Assembly (NCBI RefSeq): GCF_016125515.1 | Contig: NZ_WGLO01000015.1 | Span: forward strand, 4,381 to 36,380 | Direction: 5' to 3' | Length of the DNA stretch: 32,000 nt | From: Hyphomonas sp. | GTDB taxonomy: Bacteria > Pseudomonadota > Alphaproteobacteria > Caulobacterales > Hyphomonadaceae | Shown: piece by piece, positions 5,193 through 25,019 of the stretch | How positions within the stretch are numbered: the first letter of the stretch is position 1 | How the letters are laid out: every line of letters starts with the position of its first letter | The notes under the pieces: model-generated | Seen by the model: only the letters and a program-made list of their open reading frames with translations | What the model was told of the DNA's origin: nothing | Databases searched by the model: none | Made by a program: the position numbers and the translations under genes

Positions 5193-6002
5193 ATGGCCGC
5201 AGCGCCGTCGCTTGTACTCGTCGGGGCCGGCCGCATGGGCGCCGCGCTCGCGCGCGGGTGGTTGAACGCCAAATCGAAGCGCCAGATCACCATCGTCGAG
5301 CCGACCCCTTCGGATGAAGTGGCCAGCTGGGCCGCCGCGGGCAAAGTCACGCTGAACCCCGCGGCAGCGCCGGCCGGCATCCTGGTCGTCGCCGTGAAGC
5401 CGCAGCAATTTGCCCAGGTGGCTGAAGCGATCCGCGGCTTTGCGGGTCCGAAAACCCTCGTCGTCTCGATCATGGCCGGCGTTCGCATCGCGCAGCTCTC
5501 GCGCCGTCTGGACACGGCCCGCATCGCCCGGGCCATGCCCAACACGCCGGGCGCCATCGGGCAGGGCGTCACCGTCTTCTGCGCTGCCCCGGGCCTCAGC
5601 GCGGCCGACAATGAAACGGTCCGCAGCCTGCTCGCGCCGCTCGGCGAAGTGCATGGGCCGGTTGACGAGGGGCTGATGTCCGCCGTCACGGCCCTGTCGG
5701 GCAGCGGCCCGGCCTACCTGTTCCTGCTGGCCGAATCGATGGCCGAAGCTGGCGAGTCCGAAGGCCTGCCGCGCGCCCTGGCCCAGCGCCTCGCCCGCCG
5801 CACGGTCGAAGGCGCCGCCGCCCTGCTTGCCGCCAGCGAAGACGGCCCCGAAGCTCTGCGCCGCGCCGTAACTTCCCCCGGCGGCACCACTCAGGCGGCT
5901 CTTGACATCCTGATGGACACGGGTGGCATGCCTCGATTGTTGAGAGACGCTCTGCGCGCTGCCGCGACCCGCGACCGGCAGCTGTCAAAAGAGGCGGATT
6001 AA
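5193..6002 (+). CDS. proC: Pyrroline-5-carboxylate reductase
   Basis: 269 aa. There is an N-terminal Rossmann motif (LVLVGAGRMGAALARGW) and the C-terminal P5CR signature VTSPGGTTQAAL. Confidence 0.9.
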   Translation: MAAAPSLVLVGAGRMGAALARGWLNAKSKRQITIVEPTPSDEVASWAAAGKVTLNPAAAPAGILVVAVKPQQFAQVAEAIRGFAGPKTLVVSIMAGVRIAQLSRRLDTARIARAMPNTPGAIGQGVTVFCAAPGLSAADNETVRSLLAPLGEVHGPVDEGLMSAVTALSGSGPAYLFLLAESMAEAGESEGLPRALAQRLARRTVEGAAALLAASEDGPEALRRAVTSPGGTTQAALDILMDTGGMPRLLRDALRAAATRDRQLSKEAD

Positions 6003-6020
6003 CCCCGGGAGGCATGGCCC

Positions 6021-6638
6021 TTGGCCAGCGCTGAGAAGATCATCGAGAAGGGGCTCAAAGCAGCCCTCGAGCTGGCTGCGTCGCGGCCCTGGGCAGATAT
6101 TCCGTTGGCGGACATTGCCGCCCGGGCGAAGCTCTCGCTTTCGGACTTTCACGGTGTGGCCGGGCGCGAAGACCTCGTCGAAGCGCTGGATGGCTATTTC
6201 GACAGGGCGATGTCGGCAGACGGCGTGCCAGAAGAAACCTCGCCGCGCGAACGCCTGTTCGATGTCATCATGCTGCGCTTCGAGGCGATGGAGCCCTGCC
6301 GCGCAGGTCTCCTCGAGCTCCTGAAGTTCCGCGAAACCTCGCTCACCCATGTCGTGCGCCTGCCGGGCCATCGCCATGCCAGCGCCGCCTGGGCGCTTGC
6401 CTCAGCCGGTCTCGATAATGATGGCGGCGCGCCGGCCAGCCTGAAACGCATCGCCATTGCCGTTGTCATAGCCCAGGCCGAGCGGGCCTGGCGCAAGGAG
6501 GCCGGCGGCGACTTTGCCCTCACCATGGCCGCGCTCGACAAGGGGCTGCGCCGGGCCGAGGAACGCCTCGGCCAGCTGCGACGGTTTACTGGCCGCGCGC
6601 CCACTTCCAAACCCGAAACCGAAGAAACCGCCACATGA
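6021..6638 (+). CDS. TetR-like helical regulator (family assignment uncertain)
   Basis: 205 aa. The start is TTG at 6021, 8 nt after GGGAGG. The N-terminus (GLKAALELAASRPWADIPLADIAARAKLSLSDFHG) resembles a TetR/AcrR or COQ9-type HTH. The stop overlaps the next ATG (ATGA at 6635-6638). Confidence 0.5.
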   Translation: MASAEKIIEKGLKAALELAASRPWADIPLADIAARAKLSLSDFHGVAGREDLVEALDGYFDRAMSADGVPEETSPRERLFDVIMLRFEAMEPCRAGLLELLKFRETSLTHVVRLPGHRHASAAWALASAGLDNDGGAPASLKRIAIAVVIAQAERAWRKEAGGDFALTMAALDKGLRRAEERLGQLRRFTGRAPTSKPETEETAT

Positions 6639-9358: not shown

Positions 9359-10274
9359 TCAGTTGAGCAATGATTCGAGGCTTTCGCACTGCGCGGCGTG
9401 CTTTTCCGGGTTCGTGTCTCGCAGTTTCAGGATGTTTTGCAGCTTCCACTGGACGGCGGGCAGGTCCGCCGCGGATGGTAAATCGATGGCGTCGAAGTCC
9501 GGTTCGCCATTGACCAGTGTTCGCAGAAATCGTGCCGCATTGCCGTTCAGGCGCGACTGTACATCTGCAATGAGTGTGACCCGCACTTGCTCCAGTTCGG
9601 CGAGGCTGACCGCATCGACAGTCATGCCGGAGAACTCAGCCTCGAAGACGTTTGATAAGGGTGCGAGGTTCGGGTTCAGCAATTCATGCGGAGGTCTGCT
9701 GGAGCTCGCGACACAGACGAGGAAGGCCCGGAAGAGATCATCCGTAATGCCCTCATGCTCTTAGAGCAGCTTCACATCGAACAGGTCGCGCGGGTGCTGA
9801 CGGTCAAGCGCGGCATGGAGCTTGCCGGCATAGAGATCCTCGAACGCGACCAATCTTGTCTCCGCGAACCCGAATTCGTCCTCGACCGCAGGTGAGACGC
9901 GTTTGGTCTCGGGCTCGAACACAACGCCGCGTGTCACAGGGGAGGTTTCGACCTTCACGGATGCAGCGCCGCGCCGAAACAGGACGCGGGTGGCGCCGCC
10001 GCCACCGCCCGGGATCCGGGTCGCGGTCACGCCTCGCACTTTCGAGCCTGCCGCAGCGATACGGGTCATGGCGGCGTCGATGTCCGTAAGGGATTGCGCG
10101 CGTTCCCTGACCGGCAGGAAGGTCAGATCGACATCGACCGACAGGCGCGGAAGATCACGATAGAGCAGGTTGATCGCCGTGCCGCCTTTCAGGGCAGAAG
10201 TCTTCTTCTGCCGCCACGGCAGGCTGGATATCCACCAGCAGCCGGACCTGATCCACATATCGCTCACGTGCCAT
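9359..10274 (-). pseudogene. abiEii: AbiEii/AbiGii-family nucleotidyltransferase toxin (type IV TA), inactivated
   Basis: The family N-terminus MARERYVDQVRLLVDIQPAVAAEEDF starts at the ATG at 10274. It is one frame off from ALKGGTAINLLYRDLPRLSVDVDLTFLP; an extra base near 10195-10197 explains the shift. An in-frame TAA at 9761-9763 then splits the gene (...RDLFDVKLL*EHEGITDDLFRAFLV...). I verified codon by codon that the 168-aa and 107-aa track ORFs share one frame. Confidence 0.8.
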
Positions 10275-11061
10275 GGCGAGCCTCACTTTGCGGCATCAGC
10301 TCAGGCGGCACGGAGACCTTGTAGTGCGGATGAAACTGTCCTTTGTCAAAGAGGGCGCGGGGCCCCGAGCCGAGGTCGAACCGCTCCGGCGAGAGATGTC
10401 GCCGCCAGGCATGAGCATGCTTGTCGGCAAAAACGAAGAAGAGCCGCTTGACCTTGATGCTGGTGCAGGACGCCAGCAGCTTTTCCAGTCGGCGGGGGCG
10501 CGCGGACACGAGGCCTTCAAAGGCCGTATCGACGATATGAGCGCTCTCATGCTTCGGCAGCTCATCCAGCAATTCAAGGATGGCGCGTTCCGGCGTTGAA
10601 CACTTCAGCAGGCCAACGGGGGAGTCGACCTCCGTCGTTTCCTCATGGGCCTTCATGTCGAACAGTTTGGCGCTGTGCAGCCTGTAGCGGCCCGCCTCAT
10701 CCAGCCGCTTGAGCCAGGTCGGATGGGCTTCGCCATAAAGGTGGACGTCCTGATCGCCGCGCATCGGCAGATAATGGGCGAACCCTTGCAGCTCCAGTGC
10801 GGTCCGTCCGCCAACCACTGATGAATAGTTCATGATGTGCTGCAGCGAGCGCACCACGCGTTGCCAGTCTGCGCCGCCAGCGACAACCTGCGGCCGTCGA
10901 TAGAGGCCGCGCACCACCGGTTCGAGCCAGCCGCTGTCTATGTATTTGTGGGCGAGCATGCGCGTGATGCCATGACGCTCCAGCGTTGACGTATCGACCA
11001 GCTGACCTGGCAGGACGGTCTCCAGCAGCCATTTTAGCTTTGTCTCATTTTGTCGCCTCAT
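10264..11061 (-). CDS. abiEi: AbiEi-family antitoxin/transcriptional regulator (type IV TA)
   Basis: 265 aa from the ATG at 11061 (MRRQNETKLKWLLETVLPGQLVDTSTLERHGITRMLAHKYIDSGWLEPVVRGLYRRP). This is a winged-helix N-terminus typical of AbiEi. Its 3' end overlaps the ancestral abiEii start (ATGGCACGTGA). The 98-codon 5' extension in the track runs through AT-rich promoter DNA and was trimmed. Confidence 0.75.
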   Translation of the reverse strand: MRRQNETKLKWLLETVLPGQLVDTSTLERHGITRMLAHKYIDSGWLEPVVRGLYRRPQVVAGGADWQRVVRSLQHIMNYSSVVGGRTALELQGFAHYLPMRGDQDVHLYGEAHPTWLKRLDEAGRYRLHSAKLFDMKAHEETTEVDSPVGLLKCSTPERAILELLDELPKHESAHIVDTAFEGLVSARPRRLEKLLASCTSIKVKRLFFVFADKHAHAWRRHLSPERFDLGSGPRALFDKGQFHPHYKVSVPPELMPQSEARHGT

Positions 11062-11747
11062 AGGATACAAAATAGCCAATTTTCGAAATTTAGCAAGTGG
11101 AGAGTTTTGAAAATACGCAGACTGGTATACCCAAAGGGTACTAAAACCACCAAACTCGAAACGCGCCGGGTTAAGCGAACACGCCTGTACACACGCCAGC
11201 ACCCAGTGATCACCGTGAGCCGTACAAGGCTCTAAATTCTCGCAAGACGTCGCAAGAGCGTCGCCCCGCAAGGTCAACGGGAACCGATCTAAGTGTTTGT
11301 TGAAGAACACTTTTTTAGCGAAAACTTGCACAGCCTCGGTGGTTCTCGCAAACATGCGAAAGCCGAGCTCCCAAAGACCAAATCGCCGATCTTGCCGGTC
11401 ACGTGCCTGGCGCAGGGGTCACCGGTATCGACGGGCTCGATCACCGCGAACTCTGCCTCGACCGGCAGGTCCTTTCCGCCATCCTCGCCTTCCTCGGATA
11501 CACCTAGCCGGATCTTTTTTTGCCTGATCCTTACCGGAATCTGGCACGCAAACCCCGCTTCCGGCAGGTTTTGGCCCCAATTCCCCGAAATGTGCCGCCC
11601 CGGAACAGGTTTCCAAACGGGCCCCTAACGGGGGTGGCCAAACTCATCTTCCAAGGCAAGGCCGGGCTTAAACCGCCTCGTGTACGGTCCGCTCATACCC
11701 CTGCAGAAGCGGGGTGAAACGCTAAGGACCGTGAAGTGGTTTTTGAA

Positions 11748-21029: not shown

Positions 21030-22922
21030 TCAGGCGGGCTTGCGGCGGCGCGTTGCGGCAAGGGCGGCGCCGTATTCCGGCACGAGATTGCCGAGAAGGC
21101 GCAGGGCTTCCAAAGTTTCGTGGCGGCGGGCAGCGTCCATCAGTACGCTGATCTGCTTTTCAAGGAGTTCGTTCTGCGGCGGTTCGCAAACGACCCGGTT
21201 GACGCCGTCAACACGGGTCGTCTCGAGCTCTTCATAGGCGTAGGTCAGCGCTTCGTGGCGCTTCTCGCCCTTGCGCATGCCGGTGGTGACGATCTCGATA
21301 TCGACGCCGGGCACCTTGCCCTTGAGGCGGATCATTGTCTCGGCCAGCTGGCGGATGGCGATCGGCTCGCCCATGTCGAGCACGAAAAGCTCGGCATGGT
21401 GCGCTTCGCGCTGCAGGGCGGCGGCCTGGAGGACGAGCGAGGTCGCCTCCTCGATGGTCATGAAGTAGCGGGTGGCTTCAGGATCGGTGATCGTCACCGG
21501 CCCGCCGGCCGCGATCTGGCGCTCGAACAGCGGCACGACGGAGCCGGATGAGCCGAGCACATTGCCGAACCGGACCATGGCGCTGGCCATGCCGGCTTCG
21601 GTGGTGATGCGGCTGATGGCGAGTTCGGCCAGGCGTTTGGTGGCGCCCATGACATTGTCTGGCGCGACGGCCTTGTCAGTCGAGATGAACACGAACTGGC
21701 GCGCGCCCGAGGCGGCGGCGGCCCGGGCGACGTTCACCGCGCCGCCGACATTGGTAAGGATCGCTTCGCAGATGTTCTCTTCCATCAGCGGCACATGTTT
21801 CAGCGCGGCAGCGTGGATGACGATCTCGGGCCTTGATTGCGCGAAGGCTGCATTCATGCGGACAGGGTCGCGGATGTCGCCCAGATGCGAAGTAAACGGC
21901 AGGCTAGGATGGTGTACGCGCAGCAAATGGTCGATCTGGTAGAGATTGAATTCGGACGAGTCGATGATCGTGAGGGCTGCGGGAACGTTCTGCGCGACCT
22001 GCAAGGCCAGCTCTGACCCGATGGAGCCGCCGCCGCCGGTGACCACGATCCGGGCACCGCTGATCAGGTCGCGCACCGGCCGGCGGTCAAGTGCGCGTTC
22101 CGGGCGGGCGAGCAGGTCGGCCGCGCGGATCGGTTCGAGCGTCTGCGCCGTCTCGTCATGGCCAAGCGCCATGATGTCCGCCCGGTGGGTGGAGGCGATT
22201 TCGAGGATACGGGCCATCTGGCCGCGTTCGCGGGCGGGTCCGGTGACGGCGACCCAGGGCGCGCTGCCATAGCGCAGCGAAAGCACGTCGATGACCTCGC
22301 CCAGCGTGTCGAGGTTGCCCATGATCGGCACGCCGCGCACGGCCCGGCCGGGCTGGTCAGAGCTGACCTCGATCAGGCCGAGCACGCGGACGGTCGAGCC
22401 GGCCGCGGAGGCTTCCAGCCGGCGCAGGACGTTGACCCAGCTGTCGGCGTCGCCGACGAGCAAGACCGGCTGGCTCTGGTGCGGCAGGCGCTGGAAGATC
22501 TGCAGCGGCGCATTGGTCGTGCGATAGCGCGCGAACATACGGCCGGCGAAAAGCGCGGCCGTCCATAGGGTGATCGTGACGAGCAGCGTCGGCAAAGGGT
22601 TATGCAGCCGGCCATTCAGGGCCACCATCACCGGCAGATAAAGAAGGACCGACAGGGCGATCCCCTGGATCAGCTTGAACGCGTCGGGCGCGCCGATATG
22701 GCGCCAGACCTGGCGGTGGACGCTGCCGGTGACCAGACCGCACGCCGCCGCCAGCATGAAGGCGGCGGTGGCCAGCAGCCAGGCCTGGACCGGGAAATGT
22801 GAAACATCGCGGTCGGACACCAGCATGGCCAGGTGTGCCAAAGTCATGCCAAGGCCGGCCATCGCCAGGTCGAAGGAAAGCGTGAGTGCCATTGCGCGCC
22901 GGGCGGCGTCTCTGGGGGTCAC
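21030..22922 (-). CDS. Membrane-anchored polysaccharide biosynthesis NDP-sugar 4,6-dehydratase/epimerase (CapD/WbpM/PglF-like)
   Basis: Four N-terminal TM helices are followed by two Rossmann-type regions (VTGGGGSIGSEL, FVFISTDKAVAPDNVMGATKRLAE). I chose the GTG at 22922, which is preceded by GAAGGAG. The ATG at 22892 is an alternative. Confidence 0.8.
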   Translation of the reverse strand: MTPRDAARRAMALTLSFDLAMAGLGMTLAHLAMLVSDRDVSHFPVQAWLLATAAFMLAAACGLVTGSVHRQVWRHIGAPDAFKLIQGIALSVLLYLPVMVALNGRLHNPLPTLLVTITLWTAALFAGRMFARYRTTNAPLQIFQRLPHQSQPVLLVGDADSWVNVLRRLEASAAGSTVRVLGLIEVSSDQPGRAVRGVPIMGNLDTLGEVIDVLSLRYGSAPWVAVTGPARERGQMARILEIASTHRADIMALGHDETAQTLEPIRAADLLARPERALDRRPVRDLISGARIVVTGGGGSIGSELALQVAQNVPAALTIIDSSEFNLYQIDHLLRVHHPSLPFTSHLGDIRDPVRMNAAFAQSRPEIVIHAAALKHVPLMEENICEAILTNVGGAVNVARAAAASGARQFVFISTDKAVAPDNVMGATKRLAELAISRITTEAGMASAMVRFGNVLGSSGSVVPLFERQIAAGGPVTITDPEATRYFMTIEEATSLVLQAAALQREAHHAELFVLDMGEPIAIRQLAETMIRLKGKVPGVDIEIVTTGMRKGEKRHEALTYAYEELETTRVDGVNRVVCEPPQNELLEKQISVLMDAARRHETLEALRLLGNLVPEYGAALAATRRRKPA

Positions 22923-23362
22923 TGACTCAACTCCTTCACAGGGAGCCGCCGAAGCGGCTTGGCTGATTTGTGCCACCGAAGCCGGCCCGCGAAAAGCCGG
23001 AATTCGTTGCAGAGGTGTAATCCATTGCGCGAAATCCCTGACCGGGGGATTCGGCCCTCGCGCCACAGCCGTGGCGGCGCGCCTGCGCAGGTGCGCAGAC
23101 TGCCGTAGCCTCAGGCGCCACGGACCGCGCGAGGGCACGAGATGTGTTCAAATGCTCCAGCACGTTCCGGATGTTCCGACCTTGCACGCTCACCGGTTTT
23201 CCTCTTTCCAGTTGCGCGCCCTGATTGCAAGAGGCCGTACGTCAGTGCGTTCCTTGCCATGTTAATGTTGCACTTTTCAGGTCGCCCATCCGTCCATTTG
23301 CCCGCCCCACGGGCGTCCGGACGTTTTCTTGCGAGTAAGGGAGCGGTTCACGATCGATGCAA

Positions 23363-24409
23363 TCAGTCTGTTCCCAGGATTGCTTGAACGATTTTCCGCG
23401 CTTCATCTCCAAGCCGCGCAGCGCCTGTTTCAAGCCGGTGTCGCCAGGCTGGGCCCCGTGAGACGGCCTCTTCGAGAACAGCGATCAGGTCGTCCGATCT
23501 GCGTTTGGCGGCGAGCGCTTCGACAAGAAGGCCAGCCTGAACAATATCTTTGTCGGACTTAACAGCACTCTCGCCAGCTTCGTGCCGCATAGTCGATACA
23601 ATCAACTTATGAACTGCATACCGCTCCGGAGATGGAACATTCACGAGTGTTCCGAAGCGCGTGAGGATCGCCGCTTCGGTCGTATCTCTCAGCAAGAAGT
23701 CCAGAAAGCGGAGGGGAACAGCATCGGATCGCAGGCTCGGCAGGTTGACCGGAGCGTCCCGGTCGGCGCCGCGATTCGTGGTGAGGACGTCGACCCGGTA
23801 TCCACCAGGGCGAATATAGGTTGCGGCGATGTTGGGGCCTGCCAGGGAAGGAACTGGCGCAAATTCCCTATCGACTGCCTTCAGGACATCGATCAGGGAG
23901 ACGTCGAGTGAGTCATTGAGCGCGACAGATACACCATAGTCTTGTGCGAGATCGACATCCCCGGTTCGTATGGCGGCATTGGGCAGCCTTATGCCAAGAA
24001 GGCCGGCATACGCTTGGAAAGCGATGGTGCCGACAATCACACCTCTCAGGCGGAACACACCAGCCTCCGCGAAAGCGTCTATCACGGCGCCTGTCAGTGC
24101 GTCCGGTTCGGGCAGGCCGGCACCTGAAAGTGAACGCCGGATCGCTTTGCGCGTATCGGCATGCGCCTTCGCATTCATCGCGCGTTCGATGGCCGCCTGG
24201 CGCTCCGGCGTGTCAGCGCCCAGGTACCGTTCGGGCGGGCGGCCCTGCGGGGTCGTCGGTTCCTGCACGTACCAATAGTCTTTTCCTGAGATGCTTCTTT
24301 TTCGGAAGGTCGAGCCCTCTGGAAAATCAGACGCTGTCGCAAGCCGCAGCTGGTCTATCAGCTCAGCGTAGCTGGTCTGGATGACGAGGGGGAGTTCCTG
24401 GATGGTCAT
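23363..24409 (-). CDS. GSU2403-type nucleotidyltransferase-fold protein (uncharacterised; TA/defence-like)
   Basis: 348 aa. The N-terminal region carries FRKRSISGKDYWYVQEP. The NTase core is GVIVGTIAFQAYAG...IRTGDVDLA. The helical C-terminus reads PERYAVHKLIVS...KSDKDIVQAGLL. A hand count of 23581-23700 gives 63/120 G+C, against 46/60 in 22081-22140. Confidence 0.65.
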   Translation of the reverse strand: MTIQELPLVIQTSYAELIDQLRLATASDFPEGSTFRKRSISGKDYWYVQEPTTPQGRPPERYLGADTPERQAAIERAMNAKAHADTRKAIRRSLSGAGLPEPDALTGAVIDAFAEAGVFRLRGVIVGTIAFQAYAGLLGIRLPNAAIRTGDVDLAQDYGVSVALNDSLDVSLIDVLKAVDREFAPVPSLAGPNIAATYIRPGGYRVDVLTTNRGADRDAPVNLPSLRSDAVPLRFLDFLLRDTTEAAILTRFGTLVNVPSPERYAVHKLIVSTMRHEAGESAVKSDKDIVQAGLLVEALAAKRRSDDLIAVLEEAVSRGPAWRHRLETGAARLGDEARKIVQAILGTD

Positions 24410-24439
24410 TTACCGGCAAAATACAAAAATGCCGGTAAA
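24409..24439. promoter_or_regulatory. Perfect 10-bp inverted repeat overlapping the start codon of the NTase-fold gene
   Basis: TTTACCGGCA (24409-24418) and TGCCGGTAAA (24430-24439) are separated by the 11-nt spacer AAATACAAAAA. No SD is visible between the repeat and the ATG. Confidence 0.5.
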
Positions 24440-24504
24440 AGTCAATAGTCGTAATGATTTCAATCCACTTACCACACGAAAATCCTCTCGTATCGTAAGG
24501 GTGA

Positions 24505-24885
24505 TCAGGGCGTGACGGTCATCTCCAGCAGCAGGACCGCTTCGATCATTTCGTCCGAAAGTTCAATAGCGAGCGGCCTCACGAAGGGCCGGGCATGGCT
24601 TGCCCGGCGAGCGTCCACACGCCGTCACCGCGCCCCGATTACGGCTTGCCGAATATCGATTATCCCTTCCGCGGCCACGACACCCTGATCACCGCCTGCG
24701 GCAGGCTCTGCATGCACAGCAAGAAGATCAACATCTCCACCGTGCTCGCCGGTCAGCGCGTCGGCCTGAAGGAAGTCGATGACGGCATCTGGCTCGTCTC
24801 GTTCATGCAATACGACCTCGGATACGTTGATCTCGAGGCAAGGACACTACAAACTGTCGACAACCCGTTCGGGGCGAAAGTGTAA
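24505..24885 (+). pseudogene. 5'-truncated DDE (rve) transposase fragment, IS481-like C-terminus
   Basis: The open frame begins after the TGA at 24502-24504. It reads ...FDHFVRKFNSERPHEGPGMACPASVHTPSPRP...RLCMHSKKINISTVLAGQRVGLKEVDDGIWLVSFMQYDLGYVDL. This is the tail of the integrase core (YN-x-ERPH) plus the C-terminal domain. No N-terminal HTH or DDE residues are upstream. Confidence 0.65.
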
Positions 24886-24942
24886 CCTATCTCTCCGGAA
24901 CATTCTGTTACCTATGTGTCCGGGTCGGACAAAAAGGGGGGG

Positions 24943-25019
24943 TGGTGGGCCCGGCAGGACTTGAACCTGCGACCAAACCGTTATGAGCGGTCCGCTCTAA
25001 CCAACTGAGCTACAGGCCC
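24943..25019 (-). tRNA. tRNA with CAT anticodon (elongator Met or lysidine-modified Ile2)
   Basis: 77 nt: GGGCCTG-TA-GCTC-AGTTGGTTA-GAGC-G-GACCG-CTCATAA-CGGTT-TGGTC-GCAGG-TTCAAGT-CCTGC-CGGGCCC-A-CCA, which folds as a cloverleaf. The G1-C72 pair excludes an initiator. The variable-loop and T-arm text resembles E. coli ileX. Confidence 0.85.

Follow-up and report, generated by a model that had tools for sequence, protein, structure and literature searches.

The 32,000-nucleotide stretch of Hyphomonas sp. DNA analysed here (contig NZ_WGLO01000015.1, positions 4,381 to 36,380; hereafter the window) carries, at 23363-24409 on the reverse strand, a gene for a GSU2403-type nucleotidyltransferase-fold protein of family PF12281 (NTP_transf_8), the start of which coincides with the end of a perfect inverted repeat. 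The open reading frame (ORF) begins with ATG and encodes 348 residues. Residues 106-315 match PF12281 with an E value of 2.9e-61 (207.6 bits versus a cut-off of 26.3), and the alignment spans model positions 3-216 of 218. This Pfam envelope (23465-24094, reverse strand) contains the nucleotidyltransferase core and the first C-terminal helices. The sequence GKDYWYVQ is found at residues 42-49, VGTIAFQ at 126-132 and GDVDLA at 150-155. An alignment of relatives shows G127-T128, D151-V-D153 (D151-x-D153) and D207 to be invariant, and the nucleotidyltransferase motif set is present, i.e., hG[ST], [DE]x[DE] and, on the strand that follows, a third acidic residue. Judged by these motifs, the core is catalytically intact. 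In the AlphaFold model (predicted local distance difference test score, pLDDT, 88), an N-terminal unit is followed by an alpha/beta core and five C-terminal helices at residues 261-345. The best Foldseek match of the full model is 5uvd (E 5e-4), an uncharacterised fungal nucleotidyltransferase-like protein, followed by cGAS/DncV-like nucleotidyltransferases (CD-NTases); all these structural neighbours are weak, as is the support they lend to the fold. A search of the family profile against Protein Data Bank (PDB) sequences gave only spurious matches to pentatricopeptide repeats (PPR), and searches of the 348-residue protein against NCBIfam, PADLOC and PHROGs gave no match. The guanine-plus-cytosine (GC) content of the gene is 0.597, with a third-position value (GC3) of 0.62 compared to 0.76-0.88 for the surrounding genes. 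A preliminary description made from the letters of the window had listed the ORF with its length and motifs, a minimal nucleotidyltransferase core, a helical C-terminal domain and a GC content below that of the neighbours, and each of these is borne out by the sequence, the profile match, the model and the GC3 values, respectively.

The inverted repeat, which we propose to be an operator, occupies 24409-24439. Its 10-nt arms, TTTACCGGCA at 24409-24418 and TGCCGGTAAA at 24430-24439, pair without mismatch across an 11-nt loop, placing the centres of the two half-sites 21 bp apart. The A of the ATG is the terminal base of the repeat and, because the repeat arm abuts the start codon, there is no purine-rich Shine-Dalgarno sequence upstream of it, in agreement with the earlier observation of an ATG embedded in a perfect N11 inverted repeat. 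In the 3.2-Mb genome, there is no second instance of the exact pattern. We compared the window with 80 homologous loci (protein identity 42-92%), 81 loci in total, and scored palindromes that measure 27-33 nt overall, have arms no shorter than 8 nt and are located no more than 110 nt upstream of the start. Such a palindrome is present in 69 of the 81 loci, compared to 0.9% of shuffled sequences and 3.2% of random genomic windows, a frequency far beyond chance. The preliminary description had made its reading depend on conservation of the repeat upstream of homologues, and conserved it is. Position and span (approximately 30 bp) are constant across the loci, while the sequence of the palindrome varies, as does the division of the constant span into arms and loop. 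Many loci, often in distant clades, have a second, tandem copy 45-70 nt upstream.

The repeat is superimposed on a sigma-70-like promoter (24418-24445, reverse strand) that consists of TTGACT (24445-24440), a 16-nt spacer and TATTTT (24423-24418). No second promoter-like site was found in a scan of 1.5 kb (23100-24600). The TATTTT box ends 8 nt before the ATG, so that the mRNA, from this predicted transcription start, is probably leaderless. Of the two arms of the repeat, one takes up the promoter spacer and the other spans the predicted start site. With the predicted -10 box inside the loop and the -35 box beyond the distal arm on its upstream side, the distal arm should not be transcribed. 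The arrangement is conserved among the 28 distinct upstream sequences of the clade with respect to the TTG of the -35 box, TAtttT at the 3' end of the loop and the direct junction between arm and ATG; upstream of the -35 region, nothing is conserved in these 28 sequences. The arms of distant clades are similar in sequence to the -35 and -10 hexamers (GTTATA... and ...TATAAC). We thus have a gene-specific palindrome at a conserved position across the core promoter, as would be the case for an operator-promoter unit.

An inverted repeat over a start codon could also work at the level of nucleic acid structure. The preliminary description had considered an mRNA hairpin that gates translation, and a hairpin in mRNA or in single-stranded DNA would bury the start codon, with compensatory changes keeping it paired. 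The arms indeed co-vary in such a way that pairing is kept, and the predicted RNA fold of the region has an energy of -18 kcal/mol (z = -2.95). Moreover, G.T mismatches between the arms exceed A.C mismatches by 10 to 2, as a hairpin in the sense strand would tolerate, and several relatives map to parts of conjugative elements whose transfer takes place in single-stranded form. However, the only promoter-like site puts the distal arm outside the predicted transcript, which disfavours the mRNA hairpin, and in distant clades the arms look like promoter hexamers. A span that stays at about 30 bp while its division into arms and loop varies is more easily reconciled with two half-sites a set distance apart than with a stem, 13 of the 25 mismatches are not wobble pairs, and tandem copies 45-70 nt upstream, as seen in many loci, are common for operators. 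We therefore regard the hairpin as very unlikely. The repeat is probably an operator instead, an interpretation that is well supported by the comparative sequence evidence.

The half-sites fall into classes, represented by TTACCGGCA, TTATCGGCA, TTGCCACCA, TTACCACCA, TTGGAGACA, TTGTAAACA, TTATACGCA, TTATACCTT, TTATAAGA and GTTGCCT, and these follow the maximum-likelihood tree of the proteins and not host taxonomy; the Caulobacteraceae alone have three classes. Loci with the TTACCGGCA pattern have a single copy that always abuts the gene. The sole exception is locus L040, in which an orphan TTACCGGCA operator (5206-5234) lies 67 nt past the stop codon of the gene in the opposite orientation and leads into an ATG and a short frame; it is apparently what remains of another cassette, in convergent orientation. 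Neither the genome nor the loci yielded any other extra copy. In Aquisalinus luteolus (L048), the homologue is split into frames of 140 and 232 residues and is probably a pseudogene, with the operator retained.

Changes in the operator are accompanied by changes in the protein. Nine of the top 30 class-specific alignment columns fall within residues 26-60. We next contrasted sister lineages, i.e., 30 proteins that keep the TTACCGGCA operator (at least 51% identical to the window protein) and two lineages that have switched operator. The 30 proteins share 79 invariant columns, 14 of which are altered in the switching lineages, and 11 of these 14 lie in the N-terminal domain (hypergeometric p 6e-4). 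The altered columns of the domain include T34, R36, R38, I40 and S41 in strand 1, as well as Q49 and T52. A one-base change of the operator goes together with R38Q, and a multi-base change with R36L, I40R, S41K and Q49R. This correlation, and it is a correlation only, points to the beta-sheet of the N-terminal domain as the element that may read the operator. Since the operator tracks the protein clade and its switches coincide with substitutions in this domain, the N-terminal domain of the nucleotidyltransferase is the likely reader of the repeat. The suggestion of a dimeric DNA binder, possibly the protein's own N-terminal domain, which the preliminary description had set beside the hairpin, is thus the better of its two explanations.

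The proposed reader is a domain specific to the family that precedes the core; it comprises residues 1-100 (24110-24409, reverse strand) and, in the AlphaFold model, consists of a helix (8-23), three strands (34-40, 43-49 and 61-65) and a 29-residue helix. A profile of residues 1-105 retrieved 980 clusters among 1.84 billion representative proteins, and the match is always N-terminal. The 10 representatives tested either have the domain joined to PF12281, sometimes with an additional C-terminal DUF1488, or are fragments.

The repeat could instead be read by a regulator encoded elsewhere, either by a conjugative element or by the host. Many relatives do reside in conjugative elements with repressor genes of their own, and the N-terminal domain has no significant match to a known DNA-binding fold. 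On the other hand, when the 3,201 ORFs that flank the gene in the window and its homologues in the 80 loci were clustered, no conserved neighbour emerged beyond local synteny; the earlier statement that there is no partner ORF therefore extends to the homologous loci, and the protein is the only trans-acting product that always accompanies the operator. The cassette is found in unrelated contexts, and in the Hyphomonas genome the exact operator is present only at this gene, where the rest of the element is missing. An outside regulator also sits poorly with three operator classes that track the protein clade within one host family, the Caulobacteraceae, and with operator switches that coincide with N-terminal substitutions. 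We consider it unlikely, and favour the N-terminal domain as the reader.

The unit shared between loci is small. In blastn alignments of the window with 13 relatives, similarity is confined to 24447-23360, beginning at the -35 box and ending with the stop codon, and only the closest relative shares approximately 70 nt more, up to 24516. Downstream lies a Polysacc_synt_2 (CapD-like) polysaccharide gene (21030-23138, reverse strand). On the other side, a forward-strand frame without start codon (24505-24885) holds the C-terminal 126 codons of an IS481-family transposase, being 67-69% identical to the C-terminal 120 residues of annotated family members, and a tRNA-Met gene (CAT; 24943-25019, reverse strand) marks the edge of the low-GC islet. 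These assignments bear out the initial placement of the gene between a polysaccharide gene and a transposase relic beside a tRNA. Neither DUF1488 nor any other Pfam family was matched by the small ORFs flanking the gene in the window and in six relatives. Around the islet, a search yielded no convincing att-type direct repeats of the tRNA end. With the copies found in conjugative elements, the window shares only 107 nt upstream of the gene. Because this shared stretch stops where the IS481 relic begins, the islet looks like the last gene of a conjugative element, the rest of which was lost through insertion sequence action. We lean towards the view that the gene forms a compact cassette on its own and is foreign in origin, a view held with slightly more confidence than doubt.

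Between the promoter and the IS481 relic lies a second, degenerate palindrome (24468-24499), with 12-nt arms (the first being CTTACCACACGA), an 8-nt loop and two mismatches. It falls within the 107 nt that the window has in common with loci L017 and L018, where it is perfect at the same place. Its half-site CTTACCAC is similar to operator class TTACCACCA, which belongs to a distant clade, and the palindrome is possibly a terminator or the relic of an operator. In Hyphomonas sp. BRH_c22 (L024), a block containing the tRNA-Met gene and the IS481 relic (5752-6243) is 77% identical to 24519-25012 of the window. The block is located downstream of the gene in BRH_c22, versus upstream in the window, which suggests rearrangement around the tRNA-Met.

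PF12281 is widespread, with about 1,000 clusters at 50% identity, and hundreds of alphaproteobacterial relatives have the same length and domain order. Within the genus its distribution is patchy: 29 of 51 good-quality genomes are positive, with one to three copies each. The family is carried by 457 plasmids, of which 216 are conjugative, and pSymA of Sinorhizobium meliloti 1021 has both a member (114672-115715) and the same type of repeat. By contrast to plasmids, phages yielded no member in a tblastn search of 50,697 records. The closest relatives (85-92% identity) directly follow trbL-trbF-trbG-trbI and a DUF2274 gene at the end of a conjugation cluster. One relative is located between a relaxase-associated DUF3363 gene and genes for ArdC, SSB and Fic, another lies 38 nt past an integrase gene amid HipA, VapBC and HigBA genes, and a third abuts an MmeI-type restriction enzyme gene. 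In Hyphococcus luteus (L165), the homologue sits between Rhs/ArdA and HEPN/CBASS genes. The defence island at this locus comprises an Rhs toxin, an ArdA fragment, a 310-residue HEPN protein, a cyclic oligonucleotide-based antiphage signalling system (CBASS) composed of patatin, CD-NTase and Cap15, and a DEAD helicase. Homologues that are consistently linked to housekeeping genes would have spoken against the mobile or defence module proposed at the outset; the Trb, integrase/toxin-antitoxin and CBASS settings show mobile and defence contexts, with some members amid metabolic genes.

Several loci, including L054, L067 and L082, encode longer proteins (436-476 residues) in which a C-terminal DUF1488 (PF07369) is fused to the nucleotidyltransferase, and this fusion clade corresponds to operator class TTATACGCA. 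DUF1488 is a small domain that has been reported as a common integron cassette gene (bioRxiv 10.1101/2025.06.18.660453). For PF12281 (NTP_transf_8) itself, nothing on function was found in the literature library searched, with GSU2403 appearing only as an entry in an RNA-seq table. PF12281 is thus a known but uncharacterised, annotation-only family, and the operator, the cassette layout and the mobile setting are not part of its existing description.

Aminoglycoside and lincosamide nucleotidyltransferases are typically encoded by lone mobile genes and have helical C-terminal domains, features also seen here. This likeness raises the possibility that the protein is a metabolic enzyme or one that modifies a small molecule or antibiotic, and that it regulates itself in the manner of BirA or NadR, with substrate or product controlling DNA binding. 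Several plasmid copies amid transport and catabolic genes would suit such an enzyme, as would the blank PADLOC result and the lack of an antitoxin partner. However, no resistance nucleotidyltransferase family was matched in Pfam or NCBIfam, the structural neighbours are the fungal protein and the CD-NTases, all weak, and the settings that recur are those of conjugation, toxin-antitoxin and defence genes. We consider such a small-molecule or metabolic role, in place of one as toxin or defence protein, rather unlikely.

Beyond the observed anatomy, conservation and co-variation, we infer that the N-terminal domain binds DNA and that the gene represses itself. Two copies of the protein would bind the two half-sites via their N-terminal beta-sheets, and with a distance of 21 bp the half-sites would be on the same face of the helix. 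Since the half-sites occupy the promoter spacer and the transcription start, binding would shut off transcription of the gene itself. Under such self-repression the steady-state level of the protein would be low, and a burst of expression could occur upon entry into a cell that has none of the protein or through titration of the repressor. On balance, and by a small measure, we favour a self-repressing cassette formed by a sigma-70 promoter, a superimposed 31-bp palindromic operator and a leaderless ORF. What the enzyme would do in this setting is a matter for hypothesis, and we propose a toxin or defence role as such. A conflict role for the mobile element, be it growth arrest (addiction), defence or establishment, is possible but falls short of probable; it might be exerted via nucleotidylation of nucleic acid or protein, which is a guess, and its logic would be similar to that of fused toxin-antitoxin proteins. 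More generally, it is a tentative and rather doubtful proposition that PF12281 proteins are unrecognised one-polypeptide, self-repressing conflict modules belonging to conjugative elements and plasmids, in which a new beta-sheet DNA-binding domain reads its cognate palindrome and co-evolves with it, and the nucleotidyltransferase is a toxin, defence or establishment effector, produced in a burst wherever repression is lacking.

Several observations weigh against this picture. First, the N-terminal domain has no significant match to known DNA-binding folds (Foldseek E > 0.1); the comparison with Arm-DNA-bind_3 gives an hhalign E of 0.094, and the Pfam hits of the domain are below threshold, with SSV1_ORF_D-335 in 4 of 32 members (best E 0.0027) and Arm-DNA-bind_3 in 1 of 32 (E 0.017). 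Second, the wobble-bias test over the 81 loci, meant to tell an RNA role from a DNA role, gave a mixed outcome, with 10 G.T mismatches against 2 A.C and 13 others, and this strand asymmetry is left unexplained by the operator model. Third, two paralogues in one genome (L020 and L035) carry an identical operator, so that they would not be insulated from each other. The remaining points concern the conflict role. Some relatives, several of them plasmid-borne, are found amid ordinary transport and catabolic genes, and the 348-residue protein matched 0 families of the PADLOC-DB 2.0 defence-protein models at E <= 1. Furthermore, membership of AbiEii/MenT (DUF1814) was rejected, as there is no PF08843 match at E <= 1 and hhalign against 24 AbiEii proteins gives an E of 0.053 at a probability of 1%. 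Together with the PADLOC result, this leaves unsupported the kinship with AbiEii/MNT-type toxins that the C-terminal domain had brought to mind.

The comparative data give PF12281 a testable anatomy, in which promoter, putative operator and a probably leaderless ORF form a self-contained unit. What is new is the architecture of the cassette, including an apparent operator that co-evolves with the protein; the family itself is already known. The candidate specificity residues T34, R36, R38, I40, S41 and Q49 are paired with natural operator variants, providing a natural series for studying the co-evolution of protein-DNA specificity. The N-terminal domain is possibly a new DNA-binding fold, and the gene a candidate single-gene module of conjugative elements.

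Among known systems, Arm-type domains (integrase N-terminal/AP2-like) share with the N-terminal domain the succession of a strand, an SGK-type turn, a strand with an aromatic W/Y, a strand ending in LG and a helix. The alignment is topologically consistent and suggestive, yet not significant (hhalign E 0.094, Foldseek E > 0.1), so that the likeness is no more than a lead, and the N-terminal domain differs by an additional N-terminal helix and the 29-residue C-terminal helix. The AbiEi/AbiEii (MenA/MenT) systems likewise have a nucleotidyltransferase-fold effector and are patchy and mobile. In a forced alignment with AbiEii, the catalytic motifs and the K...R...KD motif are colinear. The AbiEi promoter carries inverted repeats for negative autoregulation, and the autoregulation proposed here, at a promoter that also contains inverted repeats, resembles that of AbiEi. 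However, an adjacent AbiEi/MenA antitoxin gene is absent, there being no conserved neighbour in the 80 loci; in place of a separate AbiEi gene, the proposed DNA-reading part is fused to the enzyme, and it is not a winged helix. The window does contain an AbiEi/AbiEii pair of its own (9437-11355, reverse strand), in which a canonical AbiEi antitoxin gene (10264-11355; AbiEi_3 and AbiEi_3_N) precedes an AbiEii toxin gene that is broken by an in-frame TAA, leaving a 168-residue ORF (9761-10267); it is a decayed type IV toxin-antitoxin system. The HEPN partner expected of an MntA/HepT (MNT-HEPN) type VII system is likewise lacking, since a HEPN neighbour occurs only in L165 and none is present in the window.

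Fused proteins of the CapRel/EzeT type are similar in being single polypeptides without a partner gene and in residing in mobile or defence-island settings. Whereas their second domain neutralises the toxin in cis, the extra domain of the PF12281 protein appears, from the sequence comparisons, to control transcription. In this respect the closest likeness is to BirA, NadR and PutA, in which an N-terminal DNA-binding domain represses its own gene at a palindrome that overlaps the promoter, as is putatively the case here. Those proteins employ helix-turn-helix or ribbon-helix-helix domains and are encoded by housekeeping genes; the cassette described here would instead combine a helix/three-strand/helix unit without a known fold match and a gene that travels as mobile cargo.

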